From Ruminococcus albus 7 = DSM 20455 (lineage in GTDB: Bacteria; Bacillota; Clostridia; Oscillospirales; Ruminococcaceae): a stretch of DNA of 32,000 nucleotides. Location: positions 60,001 to 92,000 of the forward strand of contig NC_014824.1 of the NCBI RefSeq assembly GCF_000179635.2. The letters are read 5' to 3'. The stretch's first letter is position 1. Each line of letters starts with the position of its first letter. Shown here one piece after another: positions 3,294 to 24,166 of the stretch. A program made the translations under genes and the position numbers. The notes below the pieces were generated by a model, which was not told where the DNA came from, made no database searches, and saw only the letters and a program-made list of their open reading frames with translations.

Positions 3294-3405
3294 AAAAACA
3301 CCCTTTCTAAAATCAACGCACAATAAAATTATAAATCATTTTGGAAACAAAAGCAGCTTCCACAGATTCGATTATTCTTACACATCTGTTTACCGCAAAT
3401 CTTTC

Positions 3406-8767: not shown

Positions 8768-9090
8768 TCAGAACACCTCACTTTCTTATTATAAGTATAG
8801 CACAATCAAAATAATAAATCAATATAAGATAACCTTATACTTAATAATTATCGTAGCTTTCCAGATCCGGAAAATCCAGATGTGGACGTATTTACGCGGT
8901 TTTCCTTACTCTTTGAGTTGAGATCTTTTCTTTTTCCTTAACAGTAAATATACTTGTCACTAAAATAGTTTTCCCCGATTTATATCGATTATATTGAAAG
9001 AAATTTTCATATATAATTATTGTAGATCATGGATTGACAAGCTGGAGTGTCTATTCGATCGAATATATTATAATTTTAGGAGGACTAAAA

Positions 9091-10752
9091 ATGATCAACT
9101 TATCAATGCCTATTTATGCAGCTAATATGAAATTTCCCGATGAATACATATCAGGAAACCCGGGCTCTACAACAATTAAGACCGGAGCGACAGGTGCTCC
9201 CGGAGTCGGTAATTCAAAAAAAATGCCAAGGGTTCATAAATCAAAATTTTCAAACGTTTTCACCATTTTGGTGGGAATAGTAAAAGAAGAAATAAAAGTT
9301 GCCTGCGCTGTTTGCGGGAGTGACAAAATATACGCAGAAATCAACGAAAAGCCTGTAGTATTCAATAATGGAGAATTATCTTCAATAGAAACACTCTCTC
9401 CAAAAGATATTGTAGCAGCTGCTACAGTTTATTATATGACAAATGCAGACCCTGATTACGAAGAATTTCAAGAGACAGCAAAAAAAGTAATTAGTGATAT
9501 CAGATCTTCTGGAAAAGCAAATTATGAAGACGCATTATTGCTATGTGATTCTTTTTATTACACAGCCAAAAACAAACTAAGTCAGGATCCTGCTTCAGGC
9601 TCACCGGCATTTATAGATGGAGAACCACTCAGCGATGAAAGCATAAAAGAAATGGGTAGGTTCTTTAAACCTAACATTTCAAACGACTTCCCGGCAAATA
9701 CATCTATTTTTTCAGCAATCGATTTTAAAGAGAAAGCTACTATATCAGAATCCGAAAAAACAACAATAGTAGATATAATATCAAGATGCAAATCAGGAGA
9801 ATTCATTCTTCCTTATGAATGGAGCGCTGACGACAGACAGCTCATTCCTTCTCTAAGTTTCCTTGATTTGTATATCCCTAGTGAAGATTTTGAGGACGCA
9901 CTGATCACTATGCACAGAGCCGGAACAAAAATCATCCAAAATATGGATCTCGGTAAAACAGGAGAAAACGCAATCGGCAATTACGGTAAATGCTTCGCTT
10001 TTATCGGGAAGCCCGGTACAGGTAAATCAACCATGAGCAAAGCTCTATGCGCTGCATTAGGCATGCCCTACTATCCATGTACAACAACAAGATACTCCGA
10101 GGAAGATGAATATCAGGGAAAACTTAAAATATCATCGTCCGAAGAAACATCCTCAGCAGCATATACAGGTTCAAGCAGTAACTTTAAGTTCTGTGAAACA
10201 CCATTCCTTAAAGGCTTCGAACGGGGAGGAATAGTAGTACTTGAAGAATTCAATTTGGCCGATCCCGGTATGCTCATGGGTGCCATAGGACAAGCAATCG
10301 AGAAACCCTTTATCATCGAAAAAGACGGATACTTGCCAACTGTAAGACATCCTCTGTGCATGATCTGTGTGACATGTAACATTGGCACACAAGGCTCTCA
10401 GATGCCGTCTGAAGCACTTTTCTCAAGAACGCCACACGTATTTGAGATCGATGATCCGGCGGATGAACAATTCGTAAAGATCCTCGGCAAACAGACCGAG
10501 GATGTATCAGAAAAGCAGATAAAAACTGTATACAGCACTTATAGGAAGGTTCTGGACTGGTTGAAAACCGAAAATATGCCGGAACTTATAAAGGTACTAA
10601 CTCTCAGACATTGCCTTGCAGCCCTCGATCAGATTGCGGCAGGGATCTCAACAAAAAAAGCACTTCAAAGGACTTTAGTAAATCCCTTGAAGGTTTATGC
10701 TCCAGATGTCGCAGAGGATGTAAAAGTCGGAATAATCGATATAATAAAGTAA
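9091..10752 (+). CDS. CobS/MoxR-like AAA+ ATPase (AAA_5 type) with an uncharacterised N-terminal extension of about 300 aa
   Basis: Start moved to the ATG at 9091 (TAGGAGGACTAAAA RBS). Walker A is GKPGTGKST and Walker B is GIVVLEEFN. The downstream layout (HPLCMICVTCNIGTQG...FSRT) resembles CobS-type ATPases. A VWA-protein gene follows directly. Confidence 0.8.
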   Translation: MINLSMPIYAANMKFPDEYISGNPGSTTIKTGATGAPGVGNSKKMPRVHKSKFSNVFTILVGIVKEEIKVACAVCGSDKIYAEINEKPVVFNNGELSSIETLSPKDIVAAATVYYMTNADPDYEEFQETAKKVISDIRSSGKANYEDALLLCDSFYYTAKNKLSQDPASGSPAFIDGEPLSDESIKEMGRFFKPNISNDFPANTSIFSAIDFKEKATISESEKTTIVDIISRCKSGEFILPYEWSADDRQLIPSLSFLDLYIPSEDFEDALITMHRAGTKIIQNMDLGKTGENAIGNYGKCFAFIGKPGTGKSTMSKALCAALGMPYYPCTTTRYSEEDEYQGKLKISSSEETSSAAYTGSSSNFKFCETPFLKGFERGGIVVLEEFNLADPGMLMGAIGQAIEKPFIIEKDGYLPTVRHPLCMICVTCNIGTQGSQMPSEALFSRTPHVFEIDDPADEQFVKILGKQTEDVSEKQIKTVYSTYRKVLDWLKTENMPELIKVLTLRHCLAALDQIAAGISTKKALQRTLVNPLKVYAPDVAEDVKVGIIDIIK

Positions 10753-10767
10753 TACAACGATCGAAAT

Positions 10768-10789
10768 GCTGCGGTCATCTGACCGCAGC
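10768..10789 (+). promoter_or_regulatory. GC-rich intergenic hairpin between the AAA+ and VWA genes
   Basis: A 9-bp stem, GCTGCGGTC-ATCT-GACCGCAGC, sits 16 nt after the AAA+ stop codon. It is followed by TATTTCAAATT, which is not a clean U-tract. Confidence 0.5.
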
Positions 10790-10816
10790 TATTTCAAATT
10801 ATATAAGGAGAATTTT

Positions 10817-13207
10817 ATGAATGAAAAATCAAAGACGGAACTTTTAAGATTCTGGAATGGATATTTTAAAAAGCTATCGAAAATAGATAGTATGATAGTA
10901 GGAAAAAAAATCGCTGTCAAAAGATGTGACGATTCTTTAGCCTACACTACAACAAAAAAAGACAAACGAATTATTTCCATTAATCCTTTTAGTCCGAGTG
11001 TACCGGAGTATCTGGTGAATGCAAAAAGATTCATAAACGGGCTGAACATTCATGAGGTCGGACACCAAAGATTCTCGGATTTTGATGCTCACAACAACTT
11101 TATAAAAATAATGGAGACTGCATCCAACATAAATTTCACTAACTGGCTTAAGAAATACGATTACCCCCCGTTGGAACTCTCCAGGGCTTATACAAAAAAG
11201 GAGGTATCTTTATTCCATCGTATATGGAATATAATCGAAGATACTTCTATAGAGTATTGGACATACGAAACTACAGGCGGCGAATTTCCTAACGATCTTC
11301 GCTTTACCGTAACATCAACTTATGAATTAGGCCCGAGCCTGGAAGAGTACGATGATCCATTTAGCCAAGTTTGTGCCGCAATGCTGCAGTACGGAGATAT
11401 AGGATTACTCAAAGGAAAATTTACATTTCCCGAAGCAAGAAAAATGTTTCTGGAAATTCAACCATCATACGATGAAGCTATCGAAGAAGGAGACGCAAAA
11501 AAGCGCATTTTAATCGCTTATTTTGTCTTCGAGAAGCTAAAGGTTTTCTGGGAACCACTCCTTAAGCAACAAGAGTTAATGGAAGAGCTGCTTAAAAATC
11601 TGGCTCATGATCTTGCTCGACAAGGTAAAGGTACACATTCATCAGATGCCTCAAGTGCATCACCGGGCGAAAAAAGCGAAGATGAAATCAAAAAGAAAGA
11701 AAAGAAGGAATCAAGAAAAAAAAGAACGATCGAGATGACTAAAAAGGAACTTGAAAAACTTCTTAAAAATCTCGAAAAAAATGACGATAACTCTGAAGGA
11801 GAAGAAGTTACCATCAAAATCATCGATGATGATAATGAGCCAGAAGAGAAGGAAGATGCTGAATCAAATGGAAACAGCGGTTCTGTTTCTTCAAAGAATG
11901 ATAGTACCAATGATGAGAATGGTGATTCAAACAACGGGATCAAATCTGAATCTACTGATAATGAAGACCATTGTAAAAGTAATAGTTCCGACAAATCTGA
12001 TGAAAACAAATCAGATGGAGCAGAGGATTCAAATATAAAAGATGAGCCTGCGGATAATGATTCCTCTGATGAGGCGAAAGCAGAAAATGATGAATCAAAT
12101 GAAAAAGAAGCAGCTAACGATTCCTCAAAAAAAGATTCAGAAGTGGATGAAAACGACAATACAAGCGGTTCAAATGACCTTGTAATGGAAAACTTTGATG
12201 TTGAATCCATCAATACTGATCTCGAAGATGATGATATTTGGGAAGATGTTGAAATCAGCCCCGAAGAGATCGACAGAATAAACGAAGAGATCGACGAAAT
12301 CATAAGTAACGAAATTATTTTTGAAAAAAAGAATATAAATGACGATAAATTGATCGATTTCCCGGATATACAAGGAAGAGGTTTTACAAAAGCAAAATGT
12401 AAAAACGTTGTTCTTGACGGTACATCATCATCTCTTTCAACGGCATATGAAAACGAAGTATCATGCATTGCCGGAGATATAGATAAACTTGCTGAAAAGC
12501 TGAAAAGAGCATCTGCAAAACCTAACACTGTAAAAACAAGACGTTCTTCGGGTCGTTTATCGGTTGACAGGTATTCGCGTTTTGATGCTCATCCTACCAC
12601 AAAACTCTTTGACAAAAGAAGAACAGCCGGAGAAAATGATTTAGCAGTCTTTATATCTGTTGACGAAAGCGGATCTATGAGCTGCGGGCGGCGTTCAAAT
12701 TCCGCAAGGAGGGCAGCGATCGGCATAGCTGAAGCGTGTGCTAAAGCTAAAATACCACTTTATATCATGGGCTTTACTGCAGATATAGACGGATACGAGG
12801 CGTATCACTTACATTACGTTCGATGGAAAAACACCATCGATGAACGTTATTCTCTTATGAATATATCTGCCAGAATGAATAATTTTGACGGATATAGTAT
12901 AAGATATGCTTCGAGACTTCTTCAAAAAAGAACCGAGAAAAATAAGCTGTTGATTGTAATTTCTGATGGTCAGCCTGCAGCGCAAGCATATAGAAATTAT
13001 TCAAATATTGGCGTTGCAGACACTAAAGATGCTGTACGTCAAGCAACCGCTGATGGTCTTGTCGTTCACGGAATCGCTATTGGCGGAACGGATGACGAGG
13101 TCTTGAAAGAAATCTATGGAGTAAATTTCACAGAAAACGACAATCTCTCTGATCTACTCAGGGATTTTGGCTCAGCGATCCTAAAACAATTAATTAAGGA
13201 AAGGTGA
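10817..13207 (+). CDS. CobT-like VWA protein with an N-terminal HExxH-containing domain, a long acidic low-complexity linker, and a C-terminal von Willebrand A domain
   Basis: Start moved to the ATG at 10817 (AAGGAG RBS). HEVGH is encoded at 11051-11065, with IIEDTSIE downstream. About 230 aa are D/E/S/N/K-rich (roughly nt 11610-12310). The MIDAS motif is VDESGSMS, followed later by VISDGQP. Confidence 0.8.
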   Translation: MNEKSKTELLRFWNGYFKKLSKIDSMIVGKKIAVKRCDDSLAYTTTKKDKRIISINPFSPSVPEYLVNAKRFINGLNIHEVGHQRFSDFDAHNNFIKIMETASNINFTNWLKKYDYPPLELSRAYTKKEVSLFHRIWNIIEDTSIEYWTYETTGGEFPNDLRFTVTSTYELGPSLEEYDDPFSQVCAAMLQYGDIGLLKGKFTFPEARKMFLEIQPSYDEAIEEGDAKKRILIAYFVFEKLKVFWEPLLKQQELMEELLKNLAHDLARQGKGTHSSDASSASPGEKSEDEIKKKEKKESRKKRTIEMTKKELEKLLKNLEKNDDNSEGEEVTIKIIDDDNEPEEKEDAESNGNSGSVSSKNDSTNDENGDSNNGIKSESTDNEDHCKSNSSDKSDENKSDGAEDSNIKDEPADNDSSDEAKAENDESNEKEAANDSSKKDSEVDENDNTSGSNDLVMENFDVESINTDLEDDDIWEDVEISPEEIDRINEEIDEIISNEIIFEKKNINDDKLIDFPDIQGRGFTKAKCKNVVLDGTSSSLSTAYENEVSCIAGDIDKLAEKLKRASAKPNTVKTRRSSGRLSVDRYSRFDAHPTTKLFDKRRTAGENDLAVFISVDESGSMSCGRRSNSARRAAIGIAEACAKAKIPLYIMGFTADIDGYEAYHLHYVRWKNTIDERYSLMNISARMNNFDGYSIRYASRLLQKRTEKNKLLIVISDGQPAAQAYRNYSNIGVADTKDAVRQATADGLVVHGIAIGGTDDEVLKEIYGVNFTENDNLSDLLRDFGSAILKQLIKER

Positions 13208-13211
13208 TATA

Positions 13212-13706
13212 ATGCTGATTGAAGATGGTAAATTACTATACCTAGTATCGGATGATCCGGAGCTCCAAAAAGAAATGAGGATACTGGAAAGTAAATATAG
13301 CGGTAGTCCAGAAGCTGAAAGACTGCCTCTTACTCCAATTGAAATGCCCGATACAGCCCCTGAACCAAAAATCAACAACACAAAGCTTCCTGATACCATT
13401 GATGTGAAAAGCGCTATGTCTCAGTGGAGCGAAAAGACTACAGAAGATAAAAAGAAACTGATACGCACTGTTATTTCATATATACGGTCAGTGAAAGAGG
13501 ATGCAAATCTTTCATACGCAGAAAAAATCAACAAATTTCCCAAAGATATCCCTGATTTGGTAAGGCCTATATATAGAGATGTTGTCAGAGGCAAAGGATT
13601 TAAAAAATTATCCGACTTGCTCAATGATGGCTCTCAGGATTTTGAAAGTATTTTTAATGAAATACTTGAAAGATTGAGAAATATGATCAAGCCCTATCTG
13701 AATTAA
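13212..13706 (+). CDS. Hypothetical protein, tightly linked to the VWA gene
   Basis: The ATG is 5 nt after the VWA stop codon, with a GAAAGGTGA RBS inside the VWA 3' end. No recognised motif. Confidence 0.6.
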   Translation: MLIEDGKLLYLVSDDPELQKEMRILESKYSGSPEAERLPLTPIEMPDTAPEPKINNTKLPDTIDVKSAMSQWSEKTTEDKKKLIRTVISYIRSVKEDANLSYAEKINKFPKDIPDLVRPIYRDVVRGKGFKKLSDLLNDGSQDFESIFNEILERLRNMIKPYLN

Positions 13707-13720
13707 TATTTGATCGTTAA

Positions 13721-13756
13721 AGCTCTTGCTTCGGCAGGAGCTTTTGATTTTTTTTG
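13721..13756 (+). terminator. Intrinsic terminator ending the AAA+/VWA operon
   Basis: A 9-bp stem with a TTCG tetraloop (AGCTCTTGC-TTCG-GCAGGAGCT) is followed by TTTGATTTTTTTT. Confidence 0.7.
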
Positions 13757-13757
13757 A

Positions 13758-13777
13758 AAAATCTGCTATAATATAAT
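13758..13777 (+). promoter_or_regulatory. Extended -10 promoter (AAAATCTGCTATAATATA)
   Basis: TGcTATAAT lies about 120 nt upstream of the 13895 ATG. This 18-mer is identical to the first 18 nt of the 22-mer found at 22708-22729 and 24248-24269 (minus strand). Confidence 0.5.
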
Positions 13778-13894
13778 TATAGAGGGTAAGCTTAAACCAT
13801 TAATAAGATATTTTCGTCTACAGATAGCTAATTGAGAGGAGGGGAGCCGCTTTTCTGCTCAACATAAAGCGTTGAGGTATTCTGCGGCGTTTAT

Positions 13895-15316
13895 ATGAAT
13901 GATGTAACAGAATGGTATCTAAAACATGCCAAAAAGCTTGATAAAAAGTATTATAACAAGGGAGAACCGGTCTACGTTCTGCACAGAAGAACTCTGATGG
14001 CAGCTAAAAGTATTATTGATTTGATAAATGATATTCCTGCCGACGACCTGTACCTTGAACTGTATATGCTTGTTAAGGACAAAAACTTTGGCAGTTTTGT
14101 CGGAAGATATCAGTATGTTTTAGAAATGGCGAAAGAGAAACCGGATGTTTTCACCGAACAACTTTATGACTTTTATCTCAAAATGGCATCTACTATAAAG
14201 AAGAACAACTATTATTTGCGCTTTTTCGAATTCGTGTCCTATTTTCAGAATGAAGATATGAAAATCATGGACACAAAACGACAGCTCGTTTATCGGGCTT
14301 ATACCAATCTATTGATGAATCAGGCTGAATTTTTGCGCAAAAATAAGTTTGAATTAAACAAAATGGTCGCAGGTGTGACCACAAAAGGGGAGCTCATCGA
14401 GGTAGATGATATCTGCCCGAATTTGGACTCTTGCGTTCACGAGTTCGAACACATAGCGCTTACGGCACCAGACAAGCTAAAACCTGACACAATGTTCAGA
14501 ATATACGAAAAAAGAGGATATAAGATCAATTCATGGGAAGATGCAGATGTACTTCGTGTTACTCAGCAGCTCCACACAAACTCAGTAGCTTACCTGACTC
14601 CATATATAAACGAGTTTACGATAGACATTATTCCGCAAAAAAGGTTCAATCCTGAACTGGGAATGTATTTGAATAGTATTCCCAAATTGCTTAAGGACAA
14701 CAATACATTAAAAGAAACTCTTTGTCATCGTCGAAAGACACTTTCTTCTAACGGTTTAAAGATCCATTTTGAAAACAGTACATTTATGAAAGACGTGCTG
14801 CTCAAAGAGATCTATCACAACGGAGCTATTGTATGCCTTTATCGAATGGAAACTACACAAGGCGAAACGGCAGGTTTTTATAATACACAGAATAAACAAT
14901 TTGCGTCAATGTTTGCATTCACAGAAGAACAAATTATTCTTCTGGGACGATTTGTTGAGACTGTAATTTTATGGTGTTATGCTGCATTTGTTGGTTCAGA
15001 TACAAATGTTTTACCTACATCGGAGTCCTATAATGATTATATCTTAGATAAAAATGCAGATGTAACTTTTACTTCAATAGGCGGCAAACTGAGAGTTCCA
15101 ACGGAAATCAAGCACATTCGAACAATTGCCGGTGACGATCGCTACGAATCTGAGATAAAGCATATCAGCGGTTATATCCGTAAATTACCGGATGGACAAA
15201 AAGCATCTGAAAGAGCGCTGGCGCTTGCTCAATCACTCGGTTATGACCTTAATGATAACGAAACTTATGTGCAGCCATTTGAACGCTCAAGCTGGATAGT
15301 AAAGCCCGAGCATTAG
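13895..15316 (+). CDS. Orphan 473-aa protein containing an HEFEH motif
   Basis: Long ORF with normal composition. HEFEH is encoded at 14438-14452. The RBS is weak or distant. I recognise no protein family. Confidence 0.65.
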   Translation: MNDVTEWYLKHAKKLDKKYYNKGEPVYVLHRRTLMAAKSIIDLINDIPADDLYLELYMLVKDKNFGSFVGRYQYVLEMAKEKPDVFTEQLYDFYLKMASTIKKNNYYLRFFEFVSYFQNEDMKIMDTKRQLVYRAYTNLLMNQAEFLRKNKFELNKMVAGVTTKGELIEVDDICPNLDSCVHEFEHIALTAPDKLKPDTMFRIYEKRGYKINSWEDADVLRVTQQLHTNSVAYLTPYINEFTIDIIPQKRFNPELGMYLNSIPKLLKDNNTLKETLCHRRKTLSSNGLKIHFENSTFMKDVLLKEIYHNGAIVCLYRMETTQGETAGFYNTQNKQFASMFAFTEEQIILLGRFVETVILWCYAAFVGSDTNVLPTSESYNDYILDKNADVTFTSIGGKLRVPTEIKHIRTIAGDDRYESEIKHISGYIRKLPDGQKASERALALAQSLGYDLNDNETYVQPFERSSWIVKPEH

Positions 15317-15395
15317 TTATATACCCATAAAAAACGTAGTGTAGGAATAAAACCTTATTATTCCTCAAAAAAATAGTCTTTGAAAAGGTGAGTTA

Positions 15396-15611
15396 ATGGA
15401 ACTGAAAGAAATGATCACTCGTGAAGAAGAAAAAAGAGATGTTAAACAAAATATAGATACTCTCTTGTGGACACTTGAACGAATAAAAAATGGTATAGAA
15501 AACGATGAAATACCCGATGTAACAAAGTCAGGTATCATCAGAGATGTTGAATGTGCTGAAATAATAGTCAGAATAATTCAGAACAAGGTAAAAGGAAGTG
15601 AAGTATTATGA
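15396..15611 (+). CDS. Small hypothetical protein (charged, helical)
   Basis: AAAGGTGAG RBS. Its stop overlaps the next start (ATGA). Confidence 0.5.
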   Translation: MELKEMITREEEKRDVKQNIDTLLWTLERIKNGIENDEIPDVTKSGIIRDVECAEIIVRIIQNKVKGSEVL

Positions 15612-15958
15612 CGATCAAAGAGGTTATGCGTGAAGACTTCCTTGATTTCGTTTACAAACCATATGAACTGTATAAACAGGTATCCATGTCAGATATTGAA
15701 AAGATGATTGACGGAGAAAAAATAACCGTCGAATTGAAATTCGGAAGAGTTAATGACGGTGAGTATATTTTGGAACGTAAAAAAGGTACGTTATATTTTT
15801 ATCGAAAGGGTTATTTTGGAAAAGCCATTATCTATTCCAAAAACGGAATCGAAGCAGTGATTTCAGATAGGAATTTTCAAAAAGGGTTAATTAAATGTCA
15901 CGCCACCGGAGTTATTGCTCACACCGAAAGTTTCCCGAGATTTTTTGCGAAGAATTGA
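15608..15958 (+). CDS. Hypothetical protein
   Basis: Its start overlaps the preceding stop by 4 nt (ATGA), indicating translational coupling. Confidence 0.55.
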   Translation: MTIKEVMREDFLDFVYKPYELYKQVSMSDIEKMIDGEKITVELKFGRVNDGEYILERKKGTLYFYRKGYFGKAIIYSKNGIEAVISDRNFQKGLIKCHATGVIAHTESFPRFFAKN

Positions 15959-15979
15959 AATTAAAAGGGAGAGATTTTT

Positions 15980-16258
15980 ATGATCATAAAAATAAACAAT
16001 AAAGAATTATATATAAATTCGAAAATGTATCATGCCGCTTCCAAAATCGCTGAATTCATACTAAAAACCATGAGAACCAAAACACGCAGCAATAATCAAA
16101 ACACTTTTTATTACGCTATAATTATAGCTTTACACACGTTGACCGGAGAAACGCTTTCTTCTATCGATGATGACGAACTTGATATTCTTATGCGAGCATG
16201 GGATGATAATAATAAGGAACTTATAAAAACCGAAGAAGTTGCAATAGAAGGGGAGTAA
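15980..16258 (+). CDS. Hypothetical protein
   Basis: AAAGGGAGAG RBS. It is the last gene of the plus-strand run. Confidence 0.5.
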   Translation: MIIKINNKELYINSKMYHAASKIAEFILKTMRTKTRSNNQNTFYYAIIIALHTLTGETLSSIDDDELDILMRAWDDNNKELIKTEEVAIEGE

Positions 16259-16317
16259 TACAAGTTAACTGTTTTATTCCGAGTGTGATTGAAATACAAA
16301 GGAACAAACTGTTGTCA

Positions 16318-16400
16318 GATAAATAACTATAATTGTCGATTTTACCGCCTAACTCGTGTCTTTAGTCATGAGTTAGGCGGTATTTCCTGACAATCCATCA
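16318..16400 (+). repeat. Copy A of an approximately 80-bp hairpin-containing repeat (IS200/IS605-end-like)
   Basis: An 11-bp stem, CCGCCTAACTC (16345-16355) / GAGTTAGGCGG (16370-16380), encloses GTCTTTAGTCAT. The reverse complement matches 24596-24700 closely, flanks included (...GTCAgGAAATaCCGCCTAACTCATGACTAAAG...GGCGGtAAAATCGaCAATTA...). Confidence 0.65.
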
Positions 16401-16532
16401 TGCATATGATATAAATTTCTCCATATATTATATAATACAACCATAGCAAGAAAATGTTTGTGAATATGCCTATAAAATAACGGCTTCTTTTGTGCGAATT
16501 TACAAAAAATAGTTATAAAAAGCGAGAAACAG

Positions 16533-16561
16533 TTTACAAACAAGATTGGATATGCTACAAT
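16533..16561 (+). promoter_or_regulatory. Sigma-A-type promoter upstream of the RNase III-like gene
   Basis: TTTACA, a 17-nt spacer, then TGcTACAAT. It would give a leader of about 360 nt before the ATG at 16931. Confidence 0.55.
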
Positions 16562-16930
16562 GTACACAACATGGATGGCATAGATCGTTTTGCTGTGTGT
16601 TCGTGCGCCTGGTCATAAGCTATGAACAGCTTTTGGGCAGAGTGGCGGCATTCAGAAAAATGTTTATTATGGTATTAATGAATTAATAATATATTTGATT
16701 CTATTTCTTTGTTTAGAGTTGTGCAAAAAACAGATTCATCAAAGATTATTGAACATGGAGTTTTTCTTGATGAAATGATTTATTTGCAGAGTTTGATTTA
16801 AGAAATGGGTTTATTTTAGTATATCACAATATGGGCTACCTCTGTGTATCTCATATAGTTTTTGCTGTATATTTGCTGATTTTGCCTCCATGAGTTGATC
16901 ATTCAACCAAATTTATGGGAGGTATTTTTT

Positions 16931-18451
16931 ATGCATGAAAAAAAGTGGCCGGAAAACTGTGTGTGGCCGAGACCGAGATGGGATTTAGCAGATAAGTTAT
17001 CTCATTCAAATATACCTATTAGGAACTCAAAAGATGTTCAAAAATATTTTAATGAAGATTACCCCAAAATCAAAGAGTATATGGACGAACAGGTAAGGAT
17101 AGGCAGACTGAATCCTGATTATACACTTAATAAAAACTATTATAATATATATATCCAAAACCATACCTGTAAAACTCCAGAGGAGTTGAAGGAACTTAAG
17201 CTTCTTCAACTTGAACAAGATGAAGAATGTGAGTATGAGTGGCGCCCTGAAATAGGAGACGGATTTTGGGATGGGAAATTCCTTATCGAAAATTATGAGA
17301 GCGCCCCTGCTGATTTTGCAAACCTTCATAAAATATCCGTTAATGACGCTGGAAATGATCCTGTAAGTTATCTGAGCAGTATAACTGGATACAAATTTCA
17401 AAATGAGAACCTGCTAAGACAAGCTTTTACGAGGAAAGCCTTTAAGGAAGAATATCATCTTACGCGGTGCAGCGAACAATTTGAATTTTTAGGTAATGCA
17501 GTACTGAATGCAATGGTGACAAAAGAAATCGTCAAACAGAGCATATTAAATTTACCGGAGTACGTCGATGGAGTAGCATGGTTAAATTCGGAACGAGACA
17601 AGGGTTATATGACAAAACTTCGTACACAGTATGTTAACAAGGAATTCCTTGCCGAACGCGCAACTACACTGGGGTTTGACCGTTTCATTCTTTATGGTAA
17701 AGGCGAGAAAAAATCACAAAACAGCCGCGGAGATATTATAGAAGCAATCATAGGTGCTGTAGCTTTTGACTGCAACTGGGATTGGTCCACTCTTGAGAAA
17801 GTCGTATTTAATTTGATCAATTTCTGTATACCACATTTGGGGCATGAGTGTTATTTTGACGAAATGAACAAATGGCATCAGAAGCATTTTGGCAAGATAC
17901 CAGAGTATAAAGTTTTTCAAAAAAACAAGCCTGATGATACAGAGTGTTTTGAATGTGTGATACGATTTTCTCTGCCCGAAAATGATAAAGGGATCGAAAC
18001 GATTCAGGAAAAAGTCGGGAAAGAAGGATCAACTCGTTCTTTGGCAAAAGAAAATGCCGCAAAAAAAGCAGTGGATTTTTTAAAGGAAATCGGTTTATGG
18101 CTTGTTTTAGAAAACATAAATATCGAGCCGAGAGTAGAAGATGCGATAAATCAGCTTCAGGAATTGTATCAAAAGAAATATATTGACAAACCCGAATACG
18201 AATTTGTACGTATTGCTAAAGTCTGGGCGTGTGAATGCAAATACAATGGTATACAAAACTTTGCATATTCCAAAAACAAAACTGATGCTAAAAAGAAAGC
18301 AGCTTTCTATTCGCTTACTGAATTCATCATGAAATCAGGTTTAGAATATGATAAATGGTTCTCAATGATGCTTGATCTGATAGAAGAAGAACGACCGTTA
18401 CGCGAATGTATCCTGGAATATGATCGAAAAAAATCAAAAACTGAAGACTGA
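16931..18451 (+). CDS. Atypical RNase III-family protein: unknown N-terminal domain of about 175 aa, an RNase III domain with a signature Asp-to-Asn change, and two dsRBD-like modules
   Basis: Start moved to the ATG at 16931 (GGGAGG RBS). GYKFQNENLLRQAFT, then SEQFEFLGNAVL where canonical proteins have ERLEFLGD (the AAT codon is at 17495-17497). GDIIEAIIGAV is retained. The two dsRBD-like segments end in LAKENAAKKAVDFL and TDAKKKAAFYSL. Confidence 0.8.
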   Translation: MHEKKWPENCVWPRPRWDLADKLSHSNIPIRNSKDVQKYFNEDYPKIKEYMDEQVRIGRLNPDYTLNKNYYNIYIQNHTCKTPEELKELKLLQLEQDEECEYEWRPEIGDGFWDGKFLIENYESAPADFANLHKISVNDAGNDPVSYLSSITGYKFQNENLLRQAFTRKAFKEEYHLTRCSEQFEFLGNAVLNAMVTKEIVKQSILNLPEYVDGVAWLNSERDKGYMTKLRTQYVNKEFLAERATTLGFDRFILYGKGEKKSQNSRGDIIEAIIGAVAFDCNWDWSTLEKVVFNLINFCIPHLGHECYFDEMNKWHQKHFGKIPEYKVFQKNKPDDTECFECVIRFSLPENDKGIETIQEKVGKEGSTRSLAKENAAKKAVDFLKEIGLWLVLENINIEPRVEDAINQLQELYQKKYIDKPEYEFVRIAKVWACECKYNGIQNFAYSKNKTDAKKKAAFYSLTEFIMKSGLEYDKWFSMMLDLIEEERPLRECILEYDRKKSKTED

Positions 18452-20606: not shown

Positions 20607-21383
20607 TTATCCTTTCTCGCTACTCTTCTCATTAAAAATAACTATGGTTGACATATTATCTTCGTATTTCCTGATCTTTGCAGCATCTATCAAGGCTCTT
20701 ACAGCTGATTTTGTATTATCAGCTGTAAGTACAAGTTCCATAATGATATGCTGCCAGAGAGCACAATGAATACCATCAGATGTTATCACTATGACACCAT
20801 TCTTAAAATCAAAAGAACCTGTCTGTATCTGAGGTTCAGCAAATGAGCCTATATTGCTCGTCAGCTGGTGCATAGCCACGCTTTCCATGTACTCTCTTTC
20901 ATCTATTTTATTCTGCAGGTACTCATTGTAGTTTGCCGTATGATCAACTGTCATCTGAATGATTTTTGGCTCTTTGTTCTTATTTGTGGTGATCCACTGA
21001 AGTCTTGTGTTTCCGCAATGTGCAAAATATACCTTCTCTTTATGAATAACACAACAGGTCATGCTGCAGCCGAAGTTGGGAAAACGTTCGTCATTAACAG
21101 CATTGAATACTCCGAGAACTCTGTTAGCAAGATAAAAAGCCTCATCCATTAAACTGTCCGCATTATCAAAGATGGCTGTTCCTTCACGGTCAAAGCGCCT
21201 TTTTATCAGGTTGATCACTTCGGCGCATGCAATACTTGCAGGATTATACTGTCCCTCAATTCCTCCTATACCATCTGCTACGATAAATACAAAAGTTTCA
21301 GTATCTAAGGCGAACTGATAAATAACATCTTCCTGCCTTTCACGATTAACGCCAATGTCACTCATTCCATCAAATACTATCAT
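20607..21383 (-). CDS. PP2C-family Ser/Thr protein phosphatase
   Basis: GVNRERQEDV, VADGIGG, ITSDGIH and YEDNMSTIVIF. The start overlaps the upstream stop (ATGA). Confidence 0.8.
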   Translation of the reverse strand: MIVFDGMSDIGVNRERQEDVIYQFALDTETFVFIVADGIGGIEGQYNPASIACAEVINLIKRRFDREGTAIFDNADSLMDEAFYLANRVLGVFNAVNDERFPNFGCSMTCCVIHKEKVYFAHCGNTRLQWITTNKNKEPKIIQMTVDHTANYNEYLQNKIDEREYMESVAMHQLTSNIGSFAEPQIQTGSFDFKNGVIVITSDGIHCALWQHIIMELVLTADNTKSAVRALIDAAKIRKYEDNMSTIVIFNEKSSEKG

Positions 21384-21931
21384 TTCTCGGCTGAATTATC
21401 AGCCGTCACCTCCCCGGAGTCACTATTTTTTGAAAGGATTACAGCTGCACTGTACACAGCGTAATCGTCAATGATCTTATCTTTGTAATTCAAGTAGATA
21501 AAAGATACTTCCGCTGCAGAATATGGAGTTCCGATCTGATTGACCGAGGCTACATACAATCCGTTGATATCTTCAAAAAGGTCTTCAAAAGAAGCTATCC
21601 CTTTTTTTGCATCTTCACTGCTTTCAGGTTCGATAACCAGATCGCTCTTTTTATCTGTATAGTTTTGTTGAATAGAAAACAACATATTTTGCTGAACTTC
21701 AAGCTCAACAAGAAAATCCTCTGGTGACATTTTACCAATGACATATAAAGTGTATACGTCTTGTGTTGACTTTATCAGCTCATTCAGCTTATCTTCCGTT
21801 TCATCAACAGACATTATCCATTCTTCGGCTTTTATTTCTTTTTTAGTTTCGATTGTTTCTTTTTCGCAGGCTGATAAAAAAAACAGCGATAAAGAAAACA
21901 ATACCGGAGCAATTTTCTTCGATAGTCTCAT
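21380..21931 (-). CDS. Lipoprotein of unknown function
   Basis: Start moved to the ATG at 21931 (GGAAGGA RBS). The signal peptide carries a lipobox: MRLSKKIAPVLFSLSLFFLSAC. Confidence 0.7.
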   Translation of the reverse strand: MRLSKKIAPVLFSLSLFFLSACEKETIETKKEIKAEEWIMSVDETEDKLNELIKSTQDVYTLYVIGKMSPEDFLVELEVQQNMLFSIQQNYTDKKSDLVIEPESSEDAKKGIASFEDLFEDINGLYVASVNQIGTPYSAAEVSFIYLNYKDKIIDDYAVYSAAVILSKNSDSGEVTADNSAEK

Positions 21932-21932
21932 A

Positions 21933-22676
21933 CTAAAATTTCCTTCCGGATTCAGATATAAACTCTTCGTACTGTCTTTTATAATAGTTATAGAAAACCT
22001 CGTCTTTTTCTGTTTCAGGTAAAGCGTCATGCAAAAAGTCGATCGGAGAATCATAGAATTGTTCTGCGATATCGCGGAGCTTCCATTTATCCAACCACTT
22101 CAGGATGTTACGATCACCAAAAAGCCTGTATACATCTTCTATGTTTTCAAAATTCTGTTGCTGTGTGATTGCATGCTGTAAACATATAGCAACCTTAAGC
22201 TTACCATCGTTTATAACATCGAAGAAATGTTTTGGAAACTTCTTTATAACTCCGTTAAGAAGATCGTTATATGTAACGATTATCATTTCCCTTTCATCTA
22301 AATGGTAACGGGAACCGAAAACATATTTGAGCAACACCTGAATATCAGACTTGACCATTTTTTTATGCGCTTCGCCGTTTTCTTCTGATGTGTAAAACCT
22401 AGCCTTGCCGTTAGGTTCATTGTAGAAATTTATATAAGACAAATACTTGTCAACCTTATAATTTTTCAGTATTTCAAGATCCAGTCTCTGTTCAGCTGTC
22501 TCAGGATCCCAACCTAGAATATTTTCGATGAGATACCTAAAGATCTCAACAGCGATAGAATTGTTTCTATCTGCGTTGTCCCCGAAGTAATATGTTGAGG
22601 CCTGCCTTCTTTTTCCTACAAGTATCTCCTCATATTCAAGTATAATCGCCATTTTCTGTTTATCAGTTATGATCAC
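21933..22676 (-). CDS. Hypothetical protein, first gene of the topoisomerase operon
   Basis: The ORF is open from 22685 (a TTG that abuts the RBS). The GTG at 22676 is 9 nt after AAGGAG and is the better start, and the ATG at 22652 is an alternative. Its stop is 1 nt from the lipoprotein ATG. Confidence 0.6.
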   Translation of the reverse strand: MIITDKQKMAIILEYEEILVGKRRQASTYYFGDNADRNNSIAVEIFRYLIENILGWDPETAEQRLDLEILKNYKVDKYLSYINFYNEPNGKARFYTSEENGEAHKKMVKSDIQVLLKYVFGSRYHLDEREMIIVTYNDLLNGVIKKFPKHFFDVINDGKLKVAICLQHAITQQQNFENIEDVYRLFGDRNILKWLDKWKLRDIAEQFYDSPIDFLHDALPETEKDEVFYNYYKRQYEEFISESGRKF

Positions 22677-22707
22677 AAAGATCAACTCCTTATTAAAATT
22701 TATTTGC

Positions 22708-22730: not shown

Positions 22731-22860
22731 TCGTGAAGCTTCACACGACTAAAGTCGCGTGCTTCCTATAGTGTCCTAGCGGACACCCCCACTTTAGGTG
22801 GGCGGACTACGTTTCTACCATACAGCCTGAACTCAGAAAATTATGCTGTTTTAGCAATAA
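22731..22860 (-). ncRNA. Putative TnpB omega-RNA (reRNA) scaffold overlapping and following the tnpB 3' end
   Basis: Consecutive hairpins lie directly downstream of the tnpB stop codon: 22788-22802 (CCCAC/GTGGG), 22771-22786 (GTGTCC/GGACAC), 22744-22761 (CACGAC..GTCGcGTG) and 22733-22744. The position matches known TnpB guide-RNA loci. The exact ends are unknown. Confidence 0.5.
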
Positions 22861-24166
22861 TTTCCGCATTCAGGTTAACTAAGGTAGAGAACGTGCAGGT
22901 GCTTCTCTTACTGAATTGAGGGACTTTAGCCTCAATGAGCAACCTTGAATTCTCATCCAAGGATTTTAATATTTCACGTATGAAGTATCTTGCACCGATA
23001 TTATACGAAGCAGATAGATCACAGTTGTAGGTCTTGCCATTTTGAAATTTGCATAGCTCATAGGTATTGAAACCACCGAATTTACCGCGAAGTACAAAAC
23101 CACTGCCATCGTAGGCAAGGCGTGACGTATTCCATGCACAGATATGGCTTACTCTCATACCTAGTCTGTGAGCTTTATTCGTTACAATAGACTGAACTTC
23201 CTGACTGCGCCACAGCTTGAGTTTCTGCTTTTTAGAACCGCGGACCTTACCGTTCTTGTCTAAATGCTCAAATACAATAACATCTGCATTATAAAGAACG
23301 GCTATATCTACGATGCAGTTCGCAGTTTTAGTGGCAATGTCGTGATTGATTCCTTTGGCTTTTGCCCAAAGCCTTGGTGTTTTATAGTTACCATGCTGCT
23401 GAGCTTTTTTGATACGGTTAACACAATGCATCAGATGGTCTGTTTCTTTGGTAAGCTTACAAAAATGCCTTCCAAGAATAGTGCCATCTGAACGCATTAC
23501 GGAAATCGTAGCAGCGGTGTTTATTCCAAGGTCTACAGCAACAATGGTCTGCTCATACACAGATATATCTGCAAGTTTGACCTTTTCCTCAAACGGAAAG
23601 TCCAAAAACCACTCCTTGCCTCGTTTTTGAAGTGTTGGAGCGCATTGCTTGCGAAAACTGCAATATCTGTATATATAATCCATATCAGACTTTTTAAGGT
23701 TTATCGTTATCCAGTCCCATGTATTACGGATGTATACTTTGATCTGGGCAGTATAATCACCGGTCCGATTGTACATTACTGTACGATACATAGACGGGAA
23801 TGAATAACCTGCTTTTGGATACGATGGTTCTCTTCCGACCGGATCTTTGATCCAGTTATCGAGATTGGTTTTGTAAGATGATACCTTGCCTATAGCCTCG
23901 TTAATAGCACCACGGCGCAGATAGCTTGGCATCTTATAGAATTTGGCATCAAAATCATAAATTGGATCGGGATTATCTTTTGTAGTATGGATCAGTGTTT
24001 CAATATATGTGAGTCTACTCACACCTTTGAATGTAATTATGTTATCCCATTTATCAAGACATACTTTGATAAGGTAATCTACAGCATGTCTGTATTCGAT
24101 AACGGTATCTTTAAAGATGTTGTTGTAATGCTTGATCTTAACGCTGTAAGTCGTATATATCTGCAT
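22841..24166 (-). CDS. tnpB: TnpB-family RNA-guided nuclease (IS200/IS605 accessory protein type)
   Basis: RuvC-I is IVAVDLGIN, RuvC-II is VIVFEHLD, and RuvC-III is YNCDLSASYNIGARY. AWNTS is also present. The usual CxxC...CxxC zinc ribbon is largely degenerate. AGGAGGGA RBS. Confidence 0.85.
   Translation of the reverse strand: MQIYTTYSVKIKHYNNIFKDTVIEYRHAVDYLIKVCLDKWDNIITFKGVSRLTYIETLIHTTKDNPDPIYDFDAKFYKMPSYLRRGAINEAIGKVSSYKTNLDNWIKDPVGREPSYPKAGYSFPSMYRTVMYNRTGDYTAQIKVYIRNTWDWITINLKKSDMDYIYRYCSFRKQCAPTLQKRGKEWFLDFPFEEKVKLADISVYEQTIVAVDLGINTAATISVMRSDGTILGRHFCKLTKETDHLMHCVNRIKKAQQHGNYKTPRLWAKAKGINHDIATKTANCIVDIAVLYNADVIVFEHLDKNGKVRGSKKQKLKLWRSQEVQSIVTNKAHRLGMRVSHICAWNTSRLAYDGSGFVLRGKFGGFNTYELCKFQNGKTYNCDLSASYNIGARYFIREILKSLDENSRLLIEAKVPQFSKRSTCTFSTLVNLNAEIIAKTA

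Follow-up and report, generated by a model that had tools for sequence, protein, structure and literature searches.

An apparently accessory RNase III-family protein of Ruminococcus albus 7 with a substituted catalytic aspartate and a conserved leader RNA

Results

Domain Organization of the Protein

The window analysed here, i.e., the whole 32,000-nucleotide (nt) stretch of the Ruminococcus albus 7 (= DSM 20455) contig NC_014824.1 from position 60,001 to 92,000, carries a gene for an RNase III-family protein in which asparagine replaces the catalytic aspartate and whose transcript begins with a conserved structured leader. The features of this locus are listed in Table 1. The gene is monocistronic and has its own promoter. 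Its start was assigned to the ATG at 16931, because the Shine-Dalgarno sequence (SD) GGGAGG lies 8 nt 5' of this codon; the in-frame TTG at 16895 was also considered and was dropped.

Table 1. Features of the RNase III locus in window coordinates (CDS, coding sequence; aa, amino acids; bp, base pairs; dsRBD, double-stranded RNA-binding domain; MFE, minimum free energy).
Feature	Position	Strand	Basis
Sigma-70-like promoter: TTTACA, 17-nt spacer, TG-extended TACAAT	16533..16561	+	Consensus scan, 10/12 matches with TG
5'-terminal leader hairpin, ~110 nt, starting CAUGGAUGGCAU	16570..16680	+	Covariation, covariance model R1
SD-sequestering hairpin	16884..16923	+	Sequence, MFE folds
CDS, RNase III-family protein	16931..18451	+	506 aa plus stop, from ATG
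N-terminal domain, aa 1-147, helical, invariant WPxxCxWPxP	16931..17371	+	Alignment, AlphaFold2
RNase III catalytic domain, aa 148-300	17372..17830	+	Pfam, PDB alignments, family columns
dsRBD-like module 1, aa about 305-390, divergent	17843..18100	+	AlphaFold2, TIGR02191, weak Dicer_dimer match
dsRBD module 2, aa about 400-470, canonical, KxxAKKxA invariant	18128..18340	+	Pfam dsrm, AlphaFold2
C-terminal helix, aa 474-505	18350..18445	+	AlphaFold2, alignment
Terminator-like hairpin, 10-bp perfect stem AGAGAACTCT / AGAGTTCTCT, 16-nt loop	18570..18619	.	Read from sequence

Pfam placed Ribonucleas_3_3 at aa 158-280 (E 1e-15) and also matched Ribonuclease_3 (E 2e-13). The dsrm family matched two stretches, the better one at aa 405-458, and the dsRBD-like Dicer_dimer family matched weakly at aa 320-389. 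An AlphaFold2 model built from 36 family sequences had a mean predicted local distance difference test score (pLDDT) of 84 and contained two alpha-beta-beta-beta-alpha modules at aa 308-387 and 402-468. In the first, helices at 308-320 and 369-387 enclose three beta strands; in the second, the helices are at 402-414 and 450-468, and K450, A453, K454, K455 and A457 are invariant in the family alignment. Foldseek searches against the PDB returned bacterial RNase III (E about 1e-9), Dicer, Drosha and tandem-dsRBD proteins (TRBP dsRBD1-2 and MLE), so the two dsRBD folds proposed in a preliminary description of this DNA, made from the letters alone, are borne out by both the model and its structural matches. 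The protein shows the layout of the family described below, in which two dsRBD modules come after the RNase III domain and module 2 has INQLQELYQKKY and KxxAKKxA. On the other hand, it departs from the class 1 layout of ~220-250 aa with one dsRBD, as it has 506 aa, an N-terminal domain and two dsRBD folds. Specifically, the NCBIfam equivalog model TIGR02191 aligned to residues 151-382 with 109.1 bits against a cutoff of 166.25. In PHROGs, one family of unknown function spanned the RNase III and dsRBD1 part, and no family of the PADLOC-DB v2 anti-phage models matched the protein.

The Protein Family and Its N-Terminal Domain

The family is large, with at least 922 clusters obtained in a protein search. 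Most of these are 450-510 aa long and about 40% identical, and their source names include Ruminococcus albus and Eubacterium. In a genome scan, full-length members were found in rumen and gut Firmicutes (Ruminococcus, Eubacterium, Lachnospiraceae, Oscillospiraceae, Succiniclasticum, Erysipelotrichaceae and Sarcina). The N-terminal domain had been described as a novel feature of the window protein, about 175 aa long. It indeed corresponds to no known family or fold, but its length is about 147 aa, and both the alignment and the profile search showed that it is common to the whole family. All three of its motifs, WPxxCxWPxP, GRLNxDY and PxxGxxxW, occur in the window protein, where the invariant columns are W6, C10, W12, P13, P15, G58, L60, D63, Y64, P106, G109 and W113. 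Modelled alone, the domain had a pLDDT of 80; a fold search against the PDB gave no match at E <= 0.001 (best E 1.8), and Pfam holds no family for it. Its profile matched only 70 of 1.84 billion (1.84e9) representative proteins, and an RNase III domain was present in 10/10 scanned matches of at least 389 aa, suggesting that the domain is exclusive to this family. Taken from these sequence searches, the family appears to be a large, uncharacterised accessory group of RNase III proteins with an exclusive N-terminal domain and a second dsRBD. Literature searches on RNase III in leading regions, on anti-defence, on defence islands and on structured-RNA catalogues yielded nothing on this family or on its leader motif.

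We also observed a sister family of 327-370 aa, which has the RNase III domain with all acidic residues kept and two dsRBDs, and which is without the N-terminal domain (loci L046-L092, e.g., L059 5959-6942 and L073 5911-7023). It shares the LRQAFTR and INQLQEL motifs with the N-domain family. Its hosts are Christensenellaceae, Acholeplasma, Anaeroplasma, Treponema and metagenome-assembled genomes of Clostridia, and its neighbours include a Cap4-type nuclease with a coiled-coil protein, DUF2971, HNH and a HepT-like open reading frame (ORF).

Substitutions in the Active Site

Bases 17471-17500 translate to SEQFEFLGNA, in which the Asn189 codon is AAT (17495-17497). In phmmer searches against the PDB, FEFLGN was aligned to LEFLGD of C. 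jejuni RNase III and to LEFLGN of the engineered Aquifex D44N mutant (2ez6), indicating that Asn189 occupies the position of the catalytic Asp, equivalent to E. coli D45 and Aquifex D44, as had been proposed. This Asn is not the sole change in the active site, as two more residues differ. K224 (codon 17600-17602) is the PDB-aligned equivalent of E. coli E65 and Aquifex E64, and was also aligned to the E of aeGdlsklr in C. jejuni, and G267 (codon 17729-17731) replaces a family-conserved Glu one residue before D268, the equivalent of D114. E182, E185, D268 and E271 are present in the window protein and invariant in the family, and the second acidic pair, in GDIIEAIIGAV, is kept as first described. 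The metal-binding set of class 1 enzymes (E. coli E41, D45, D114 and E117) is thus incomplete in the window protein, where E185, D268 and E271 are kept and the D45 equivalent is Asn189.

For a comparison of the acidic positions, the window protein was aligned with the 120 clusters closest to it. Position 189 is Asp in 118/118 aligned relatives outside the Asn-bearing lineage, and Glu is found in 94% of these relatives at position 224 and in 98% at position 267. Where the family has D189, E224 and E267, the window lineage has N, K and G, and within the alignment all three changes are confined to the window protein and two 90% clusters, P0001 (98% identical to the window protein) and P0002 (61% identical). 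N189, K224 and G267 occurred together in 14/14 sequence variants of these two clusters. At 17 further metagenome loci, all readable sites were ancestral, with Asp189 at 15, Glu224 at 15 and Glu267 at 14. The preliminary description had reasoned that Asp-bearing homologues would point to a strain-specific mutation or a sequencing error. Indeed, the remaining clusters of the 120 closest all have Asp, as do the 15 metagenome loci, but the Asn is not a strain-specific error, as the 61%-identical relative and all 14 variants have it. As judged from the alignment, the Asn arose within a large Asp-bearing family and marks a small lineage of it.

The corresponding residues have been mutated in other bacteria. 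Deep mutational scanning of E. coli rnc showed that D45 tolerates no substitution (PMC10037077), and the S. aureus catalytic-site mutants D63A and E135A lost cleavage and kept RNA binding (PMC3386247).

Selection on the Gene

The ORF is intact, and the exact window protein is encoded on 23 public contigs, including those of NCBI assembly GCA_000621285.1. Compared with the P0002 gene (locus L005), the ratio of nonsynonymous to synonymous substitution rates (dN/dS) was 0.27 overall, with dS being about 1, and 0.21 for the RNase III domain alone, which is the best-conserved part of the two proteins (72% identity). The dN/dS value of 0.27 indicates that the remodelled active site is under selection, and that it is neither an error nor part of a pseudogene. 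The C-terminal helix has a length peculiar to the Asn lineage and is poorly conserved (31% identity to L005).

A Conserved Hairpin at the 5' End of the Transcript

The leader starts 9 nt past the -10 box of the promoter, which is conserved in L005. A TATAAT-like box is found at the same distance before the leader motif in most relatives whose upstream sequence was inspected. The upstream DNA of the window and L005 can be aligned from window position 16457 onward, with about 93% identity in a block at about 16520-16700 and 74% in the coding sequence. The leader itself is about 93% identical, although synonymous sites of the two genes differ at 55%. It forms one long imperfect stem with a variable apical stem-loop. 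Copies were found at L005 9606-9716, L008 9762-9871, L012 9739-9848 and about 50 other loci, and the motif begins the transcript of every N-domain family gene, including those whose proteins are only about 40% identical.

To describe the pairing, 28 distinct leader sequences were aligned, and RNAalifold gave 39 pairs for them, 24 with compensatory changes. Paired cells made up 93.6% of this alignment versus 38-51% in controls in which the pairing partners were slid, and the covariation score was 0.425 versus at most 0.145. None of 500 shuffles attained any of the observed pairing measures. With Rfam 15, there was no match at the gathering score in the whole window and none at E <= 1 in 16250-17000. 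The covariance model built for the leader (R1) scored 92.4 bits (E 1e-21) on the window leader and 92-97 bits on the leaders of the Asn lineage. When the window and 85 loci (86 sources, 895 kb in total) were searched, R1 gave 37 matches, one per locus and all of them upstream of a family gene on its strand; 7 of the 37 lie outside the seed alignment. The loci of the sister family lacking the N-terminal domain contained no leader motif by R1. In addition, an RNA-pattern scan of metagenome contigs that was blind to genes yielded 22 copies confirmed by the covariance model, and among the 19 with enough downstream DNA, a family gene followed 64-262 nt downstream in 17.

The preliminary description had suggested the guide of a nearby TnpB gene or other noncoding RNA candidates of the window as partners of the protein and had missed the leader. 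These suggested partners found no support: R1 matched the window once only, with no second leader copy anywhere in it, and the sole RNA partner for which there is evidence is the gene's own conserved leader.

Two metagenome loci differ in what follows the motif. In L147 (345-2393), it is followed by a 612-aa transposase-like ORF, with no RNase III gene, and in L117 (2328-2945) by a recombinase fragment and unrelated genes; both look like insertions that separated the leader from its gene. Separately, the ATG at the 5' end of the leader was considered as the start of a small leader peptide and was rejected, because the lengths of the motif copies differ by non-multiples of three, as expected of an element that is not coding, and the variation tracks base-pairing.

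A Second Hairpin at the Shine-Dalgarno Sequence and a Long-Range Helix

In the window, an anti-SD, CCUCCAU (16885-16891), pairs with AUGGGAGG (16915-16922). A hairpin of this kind, pairing (UC)AUGCCUCCAUG with CAUGGAGGUAU, which is the SD, precedes the start codon family-wide, and the SD was paired in the MFE folds of 29/29 distinct loci. The arm with the anti-SD can alternatively pair with the 5' end of the transcript, to which it is complementary over the first 11-14 nt (window 16570-16583; leader nt 1-11 in the window). In most loci, this pairing of the 5' end with the anti-SD comprises 10-13 bp and one bulged U at -15 to -21 kcal/mol, and it is usually stronger than the pairing of the anti-SD with the SD.

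The long-range helix was compared with permuted combinations of 5' ends and anti-SDs: the cognate mean was -18.1 kcal/mol versus -16.7 +/- 0.2 kcal/mol for permuted pairs, and 0/5000 permutations reached it. At position 13, G-C was found in 22 loci, A-U in 10, G-U in 3 and A-C in 0, with 4 loci unpaired. Locus L093 shows a three-way covariation: its leader has C in place of U at position 3, with matching changes in the 3' tail of the hairpin, in the anti-SD and in the SD arm. As predicted from these complementarities, nt 1-12 have two mutually exclusive partners, and the anti-SD chooses between the 5' end and the SD, which suggests that the leader is a three-helix translational switch.

Genomic Context

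Downstream, the RNase III gene converges with the topoisomerase gene, and the two are separated by the terminator-like hairpin, which is preceded by an A-run, followed by a T-run, and likely a bidirectional terminator. Note that it was missed by the pattern scan because its loop exceeds 8 nt. The neighbours in the window encode a MoxR-type AAA_5 ATPase, a VWA/CobT-like protein, a Toprim topoisomerase, a PP2C phosphatase and a DUF4046 protein, as well as a TnpB-like ORF, a DDE transposase, and proteins of the CHAP/ricin and LRR/dockerin types. The AAA_5 ATPase (572 aa) and the VWA/CobT_C protein (813 aa) are adjacent at 9034-13207 (+) and are followed by four ORFs without family matches (13212-16258); this block and the four ORFs are co-linear with the RNase III gene on contigs L001-L003. 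A large protein with CHAP and ricin-type lectin domains is encoded upstream in both Asn-lineage loci (window 585-3323 (-), L005 5763-8933 (-)). In L005 its gene is the direct neighbour of the RNase III gene, in the window the distance is 13.6 kb, and the similarity between the two copies is patchy. This difference in distance suggests that the window may carry an insertion of about 10 kb (5.7-16.3 kb) between these two genes.

On the other side, the 441-aa ORF at 22841-24166 (-) gave a weak, sub-threshold OrfB_IS605 (TnpB-type) match (22.7 bits vs a cutoff of 30.5), and neither the family scans nor R1 on the window gave evidence of a link between this ORF or a guide RNA and the RNase III gene. 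The window ORFs at 21380-22054 (-) and 21933-22685 (-) overlap by about 120 nt when listed from their first possible starts; the gene calls of an identical public contig place adjacent genes of 183 aa and 247 aa (DUF4046) there, the first with a weak REase_II match. This match, on ORF 21380-22054, was the sole one when PADLOC was run over the RNase III-family protein and its uncharacterised neighbours.

Among the relatives, the neighbours differ at each locus and are often mobile-element or defence-type genes: a relaxase with orphan methyltransferases, a reverse transcriptase with a helix-turn-helix protein, Phd/PIN together with AAA_14-DUF4143, AAA_15/AAA_21 ATPases, and AAA_21 next to a UvrD helicase. 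None of the neighbourhoods inspected contained an Argonaute or a partner gene. In tblastn searches of PLSDB plasmids and INPHARED phages, only canonical rnc genes (aligned at residues ~142-389) were found and no family member, and IMG/VR viral contigs contained no relative. By context, the family members look to sit in defence-island-like regions, and a role in conflict with mobile elements is a candidate lead from that context only. Two family copies were also found about 56 kb apart in Lachnospiraceae bacterium AC2029 (L021 and L025; JNLK01000001.1), each with its own leader.

Discussion

A Model for the Asn Lineage

We favour, with a probability of roughly 0.55, the reading that the locus is an accessory RNase III cassette, complete in itself and autoregulated, which comprises a promoter, a bipartite 5' leader riboregulator and the gene and is distinct from the housekeeping rnc, and that the protein of this lineage most likely binds double-stranded RNA (dsRNA), including its own leader, and cleaves it poorly. 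Given D189N, E224K and E267G at or next to the active site and the purifying selection on the remainder of the protein and on the leader, the protein would be a binder of dsRNA and of the leader that cleaves poorly or not at all. A cleavage-impaired dsRNA binder had been proposed already from the Asn; this was a reasonable inference, and the two further substitutions and purifying selection strengthen it.

In this model, the transcript would begin with a long dsRNA hairpin of about 32 bp, whose first 11-14 nt could pair either with the 3' tail of the hairpin or with the anti-SD 200 nt downstream. When the 5' end holds the anti-SD, the SD would be free and the protein would be made. Protein bound to the hairpin would occlude the 5' strand, and in the Asp-bearing relatives the protein would cut the hairpin and so remove the strand. 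This would leave the anti-SD to pair with the SD and shut off translation, a negative feedback of the E. coli rnc kind. Since the Asn lineage has fully retained the leader, feedback there would work through binding rather than cutting. We infer the loss of cleavage, the binding of the protein to the leader and this direction of regulation; the domain anatomy, the substitutions, the selection, the RNA structures and the exclusive link of these structures with the family are shown by the analyses above. The leader RNA occurs only with the N-domain family, which suggests that the N-terminal domain may read the conserved leader sequence. Autoregulation itself has precedents: E. coli rnc autoregulates via a hairpin in its 5' untranslated region (UTR) (PMC5371410), and regulation of RNase III through its own mRNA is also known in S. 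aureus and Streptomyces.

Several observations weigh against this model. On the protein side, the defect of S. aureus D63A is partial, being 'less pronounced' than that of E135A (PMC3386247), and the Aquifex D44N crystal 2ez6 holds a cleaved product according to its PDB title, so the Asn may leave residual activity. In addition, Aquifex RNase III itself has Gly at the position equivalent to 267; hence, E267G alone need not be damaging. For these reasons we describe the window protein as probably cleavage-impaired and make no claim that it is dead. On the RNA side, binding of the protein to the leader is deduced solely from their co-occurrence, and the basal helix of the hairpin consists of invariant pairs and only two compensated lineages. 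The anti-SD:SD helix is without significant covariation of its own (762/5000), and the long-range duplex of the window and L005, with 10 bp plus the bulge at -15.4 kcal/mol, is shorter than those of most relatives.

Alternative Readings

The protein could still be an active dsRNA endonuclease in which Asn189 binds metal together with E182, E185, D268 and E271, and in which the changes tune metal preference or rate, e.g., toward single-strand nicking or slower turnover, with catalysis not abolished. The four canonical acidic residues are kept and invariant, the RNase III domain is the lineage's most conserved part, with the low dN/dS given above, and the processed product in the Aquifex D44N crystal and the residual cleavage by S. 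aureus D63A fit such an enzyme. However, E. coli D45 tolerated no change in the mutational scan, the Asn is accompanied by a charge reversal at the E65 equivalent and by loss of the Glu beside D268, and Asp is kept by every one of the 118 aligned relatives, as expected if the ancestral activity needs it. We consider retained endonuclease activity of this kind unlikely, though it deserves serious weight.

A different doubt concerns what the leader responds to. Its signal might be a small molecule, the housekeeping RNase III, or some other protein or RNA, with the gene being a mere regulated output. The succession of anti-anti-SD, anti-SD and SD does follow the logic of a riboswitch expression platform, and many leader nucleotides are invariant in sequence, beyond what pairing would account for. 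On the other hand, the sensor part of the leader has the form of one long, rod-like hairpin and lacks a multi-helix junction, which is typical of RNase III or dsRBD ligands and not of small-molecule aptamers. The limitation of the motif to one protein family and its absence from the sister family without the N-terminal domain are the usual signature of an autoregulatory leader, and the E. coli, S. aureus and Streptomyces enzymes provide known cases of RNase III autoregulation via its own mRNA. A sensor of something other than the protein itself thus seems rather improbable to us.

We give still less weight to the Asn protein being a dominant-negative or decoy on mobile DNA that forms dead heterodimers with Asp-type enzymes or competes for their substrates. 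RNase III enzymes act as dimers, and the dimer-forming catalytic domain is the best-conserved one in the lineage; furthermore, the Asp-type relatives sit among defence-type genes, and the window copy among insertion sequence (IS), TnpB and topoisomerase genes. However, the plasmid, phage and viral-contig collections searched contained no family member, and the mobility of the window region is suggested by gene content alone. A wider version of this idea, which we regard as a long shot, is that the Asp-type proteins are single-gene, dsRNA-directed immune or anti-mobile-element nucleases whose dose is set by a rheostat resembling a microRNA precursor (pre-miRNA) hairpin, with the Asn/Lys/Gly lineage being a 'dead' derivative that jams them. 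If this were true, the jamming would proceed by heterodimer poisoning or by competition for substrate or leader, would be carried by mobile DNA, and would be a bacterial counterpart of viral dsRNA-binding suppressors.

Two further readings can be dismissed briefly. A decorated housekeeping rnc of the organism is very improbable despite the RNase III domain and dsRBD, because the score is far below the equivalog cutoff (109 bits against 166), the neighbours of this monocistronic gene are IS, TnpB and topoisomerase genes and not of the rnc type, flanking genes vary among relatives, the gene is patchily distributed and occurs twice in one Lachnospiraceae genome, and the catalytic Asp is lost; the preliminary description was right on this point. 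That the Asn is a sequencing error or a strain-specific mutation in a decaying gene, as a single transition from GAT and the Asp of most homologues might hint, is on the sequence comparisons already refuted by the exact protein on 23 independent contigs, by the presence of N189, K224 and G267 in each of the 14 variants from two clusters with 61% identity to each other, and by the intact ORF, its dN/dS and the conserved leader.

Comparison with Known Systems

With class 1 RNase III (E. coli Rnc and Aquifex; TIGR02191), the window protein shares the catalytic fold, the signature region (EQFEFLGN here), a dsRBD after the catalytic domain and the equivalents of E38, E41, D114 and E117. It differs in adding the ~147-aa N-terminal domain and a second dsRBD, in having Asn for the catalytic Asp and Lys for the E65 equivalent, in its sub-cutoff score, and in its accessory context. 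Engineered mutants of such enzymes (Aquifex D44N in 2ez6, E. coli D45 variants, S. aureus D63A/E135A) are changed at the same residue, with EFLGN being identical to the 2ez6 motif, and they uncouple RNA binding from cleavage; unlike these engineered changes, that of the window protein arose naturally, has become fixed in a lineage together with two further substitutions, and is found in a gene under purifying selection. Class 2 enzymes (yeast Rnt1p and Pac1) have a similar layout, with an N-terminal extension and one catalytic domain followed by a dsRBD. However, the window protein is bacterial, has two dsRBDs rather than one, and has an N-terminal domain without a detectable fold relative in the PDB. 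TRBP, MLE and Dicer/Drosha are related to it by the Foldseek matches to the dsRBDs and to the RNase III plus dsRBD part and by the weak Dicer_dimer match on module 1; unlike Dicer and Drosha, it has a single RNase III domain and is without a helicase or PAZ.

The mitoribosomal protein mL44 and the trypanosome KREPB4-type proteins are natural RNase III-fold proteins with incomplete catalytic sites, which act by binding or by pairing with active partners. They have no specific sequence relationship to the window protein, and the analogy is one of principle; faint RM44_endonuclease matches were seen in some relatives. For the leader, the closest parallel in logic is E. coli rncO, likewise a dsRNA hairpin at the 5' end of the enzyme's own mRNA, with negative feedback as the logic proposed here. 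Unlike rncO, the window leader adds an SD-sequestering hairpin and a long-range anti-anti-SD helix, so that regulation would be translational, beyond mRNA decay. No sequence or structure match to the window leader was found in any Rfam family, rncO included.

Conclusions

Bacterial RNase III is commonly regarded as a single housekeeping enzyme of uniform architecture. What is new here is a large family, apparently accessory, with an exclusive N-terminal domain and a second dsRBD, together with a dedicated RNA switch, supported by covariation and outside Rfam, which would link a 5' dsRNA hairpin to access to the SD via a long-range helix. The leader offers a model, open to direct test, for the way in which a dsRNA nuclease that is potentially toxic may limit its own amount. 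Moreover, as the Asn lineage appears to have dismantled its catalytic acid cluster under selection, it provides a ready-made comparison for separating binding from cleavage. Given its defence-island-like siting, the family is a candidate for dsRNA-based conflict between bacteria and mobile elements.

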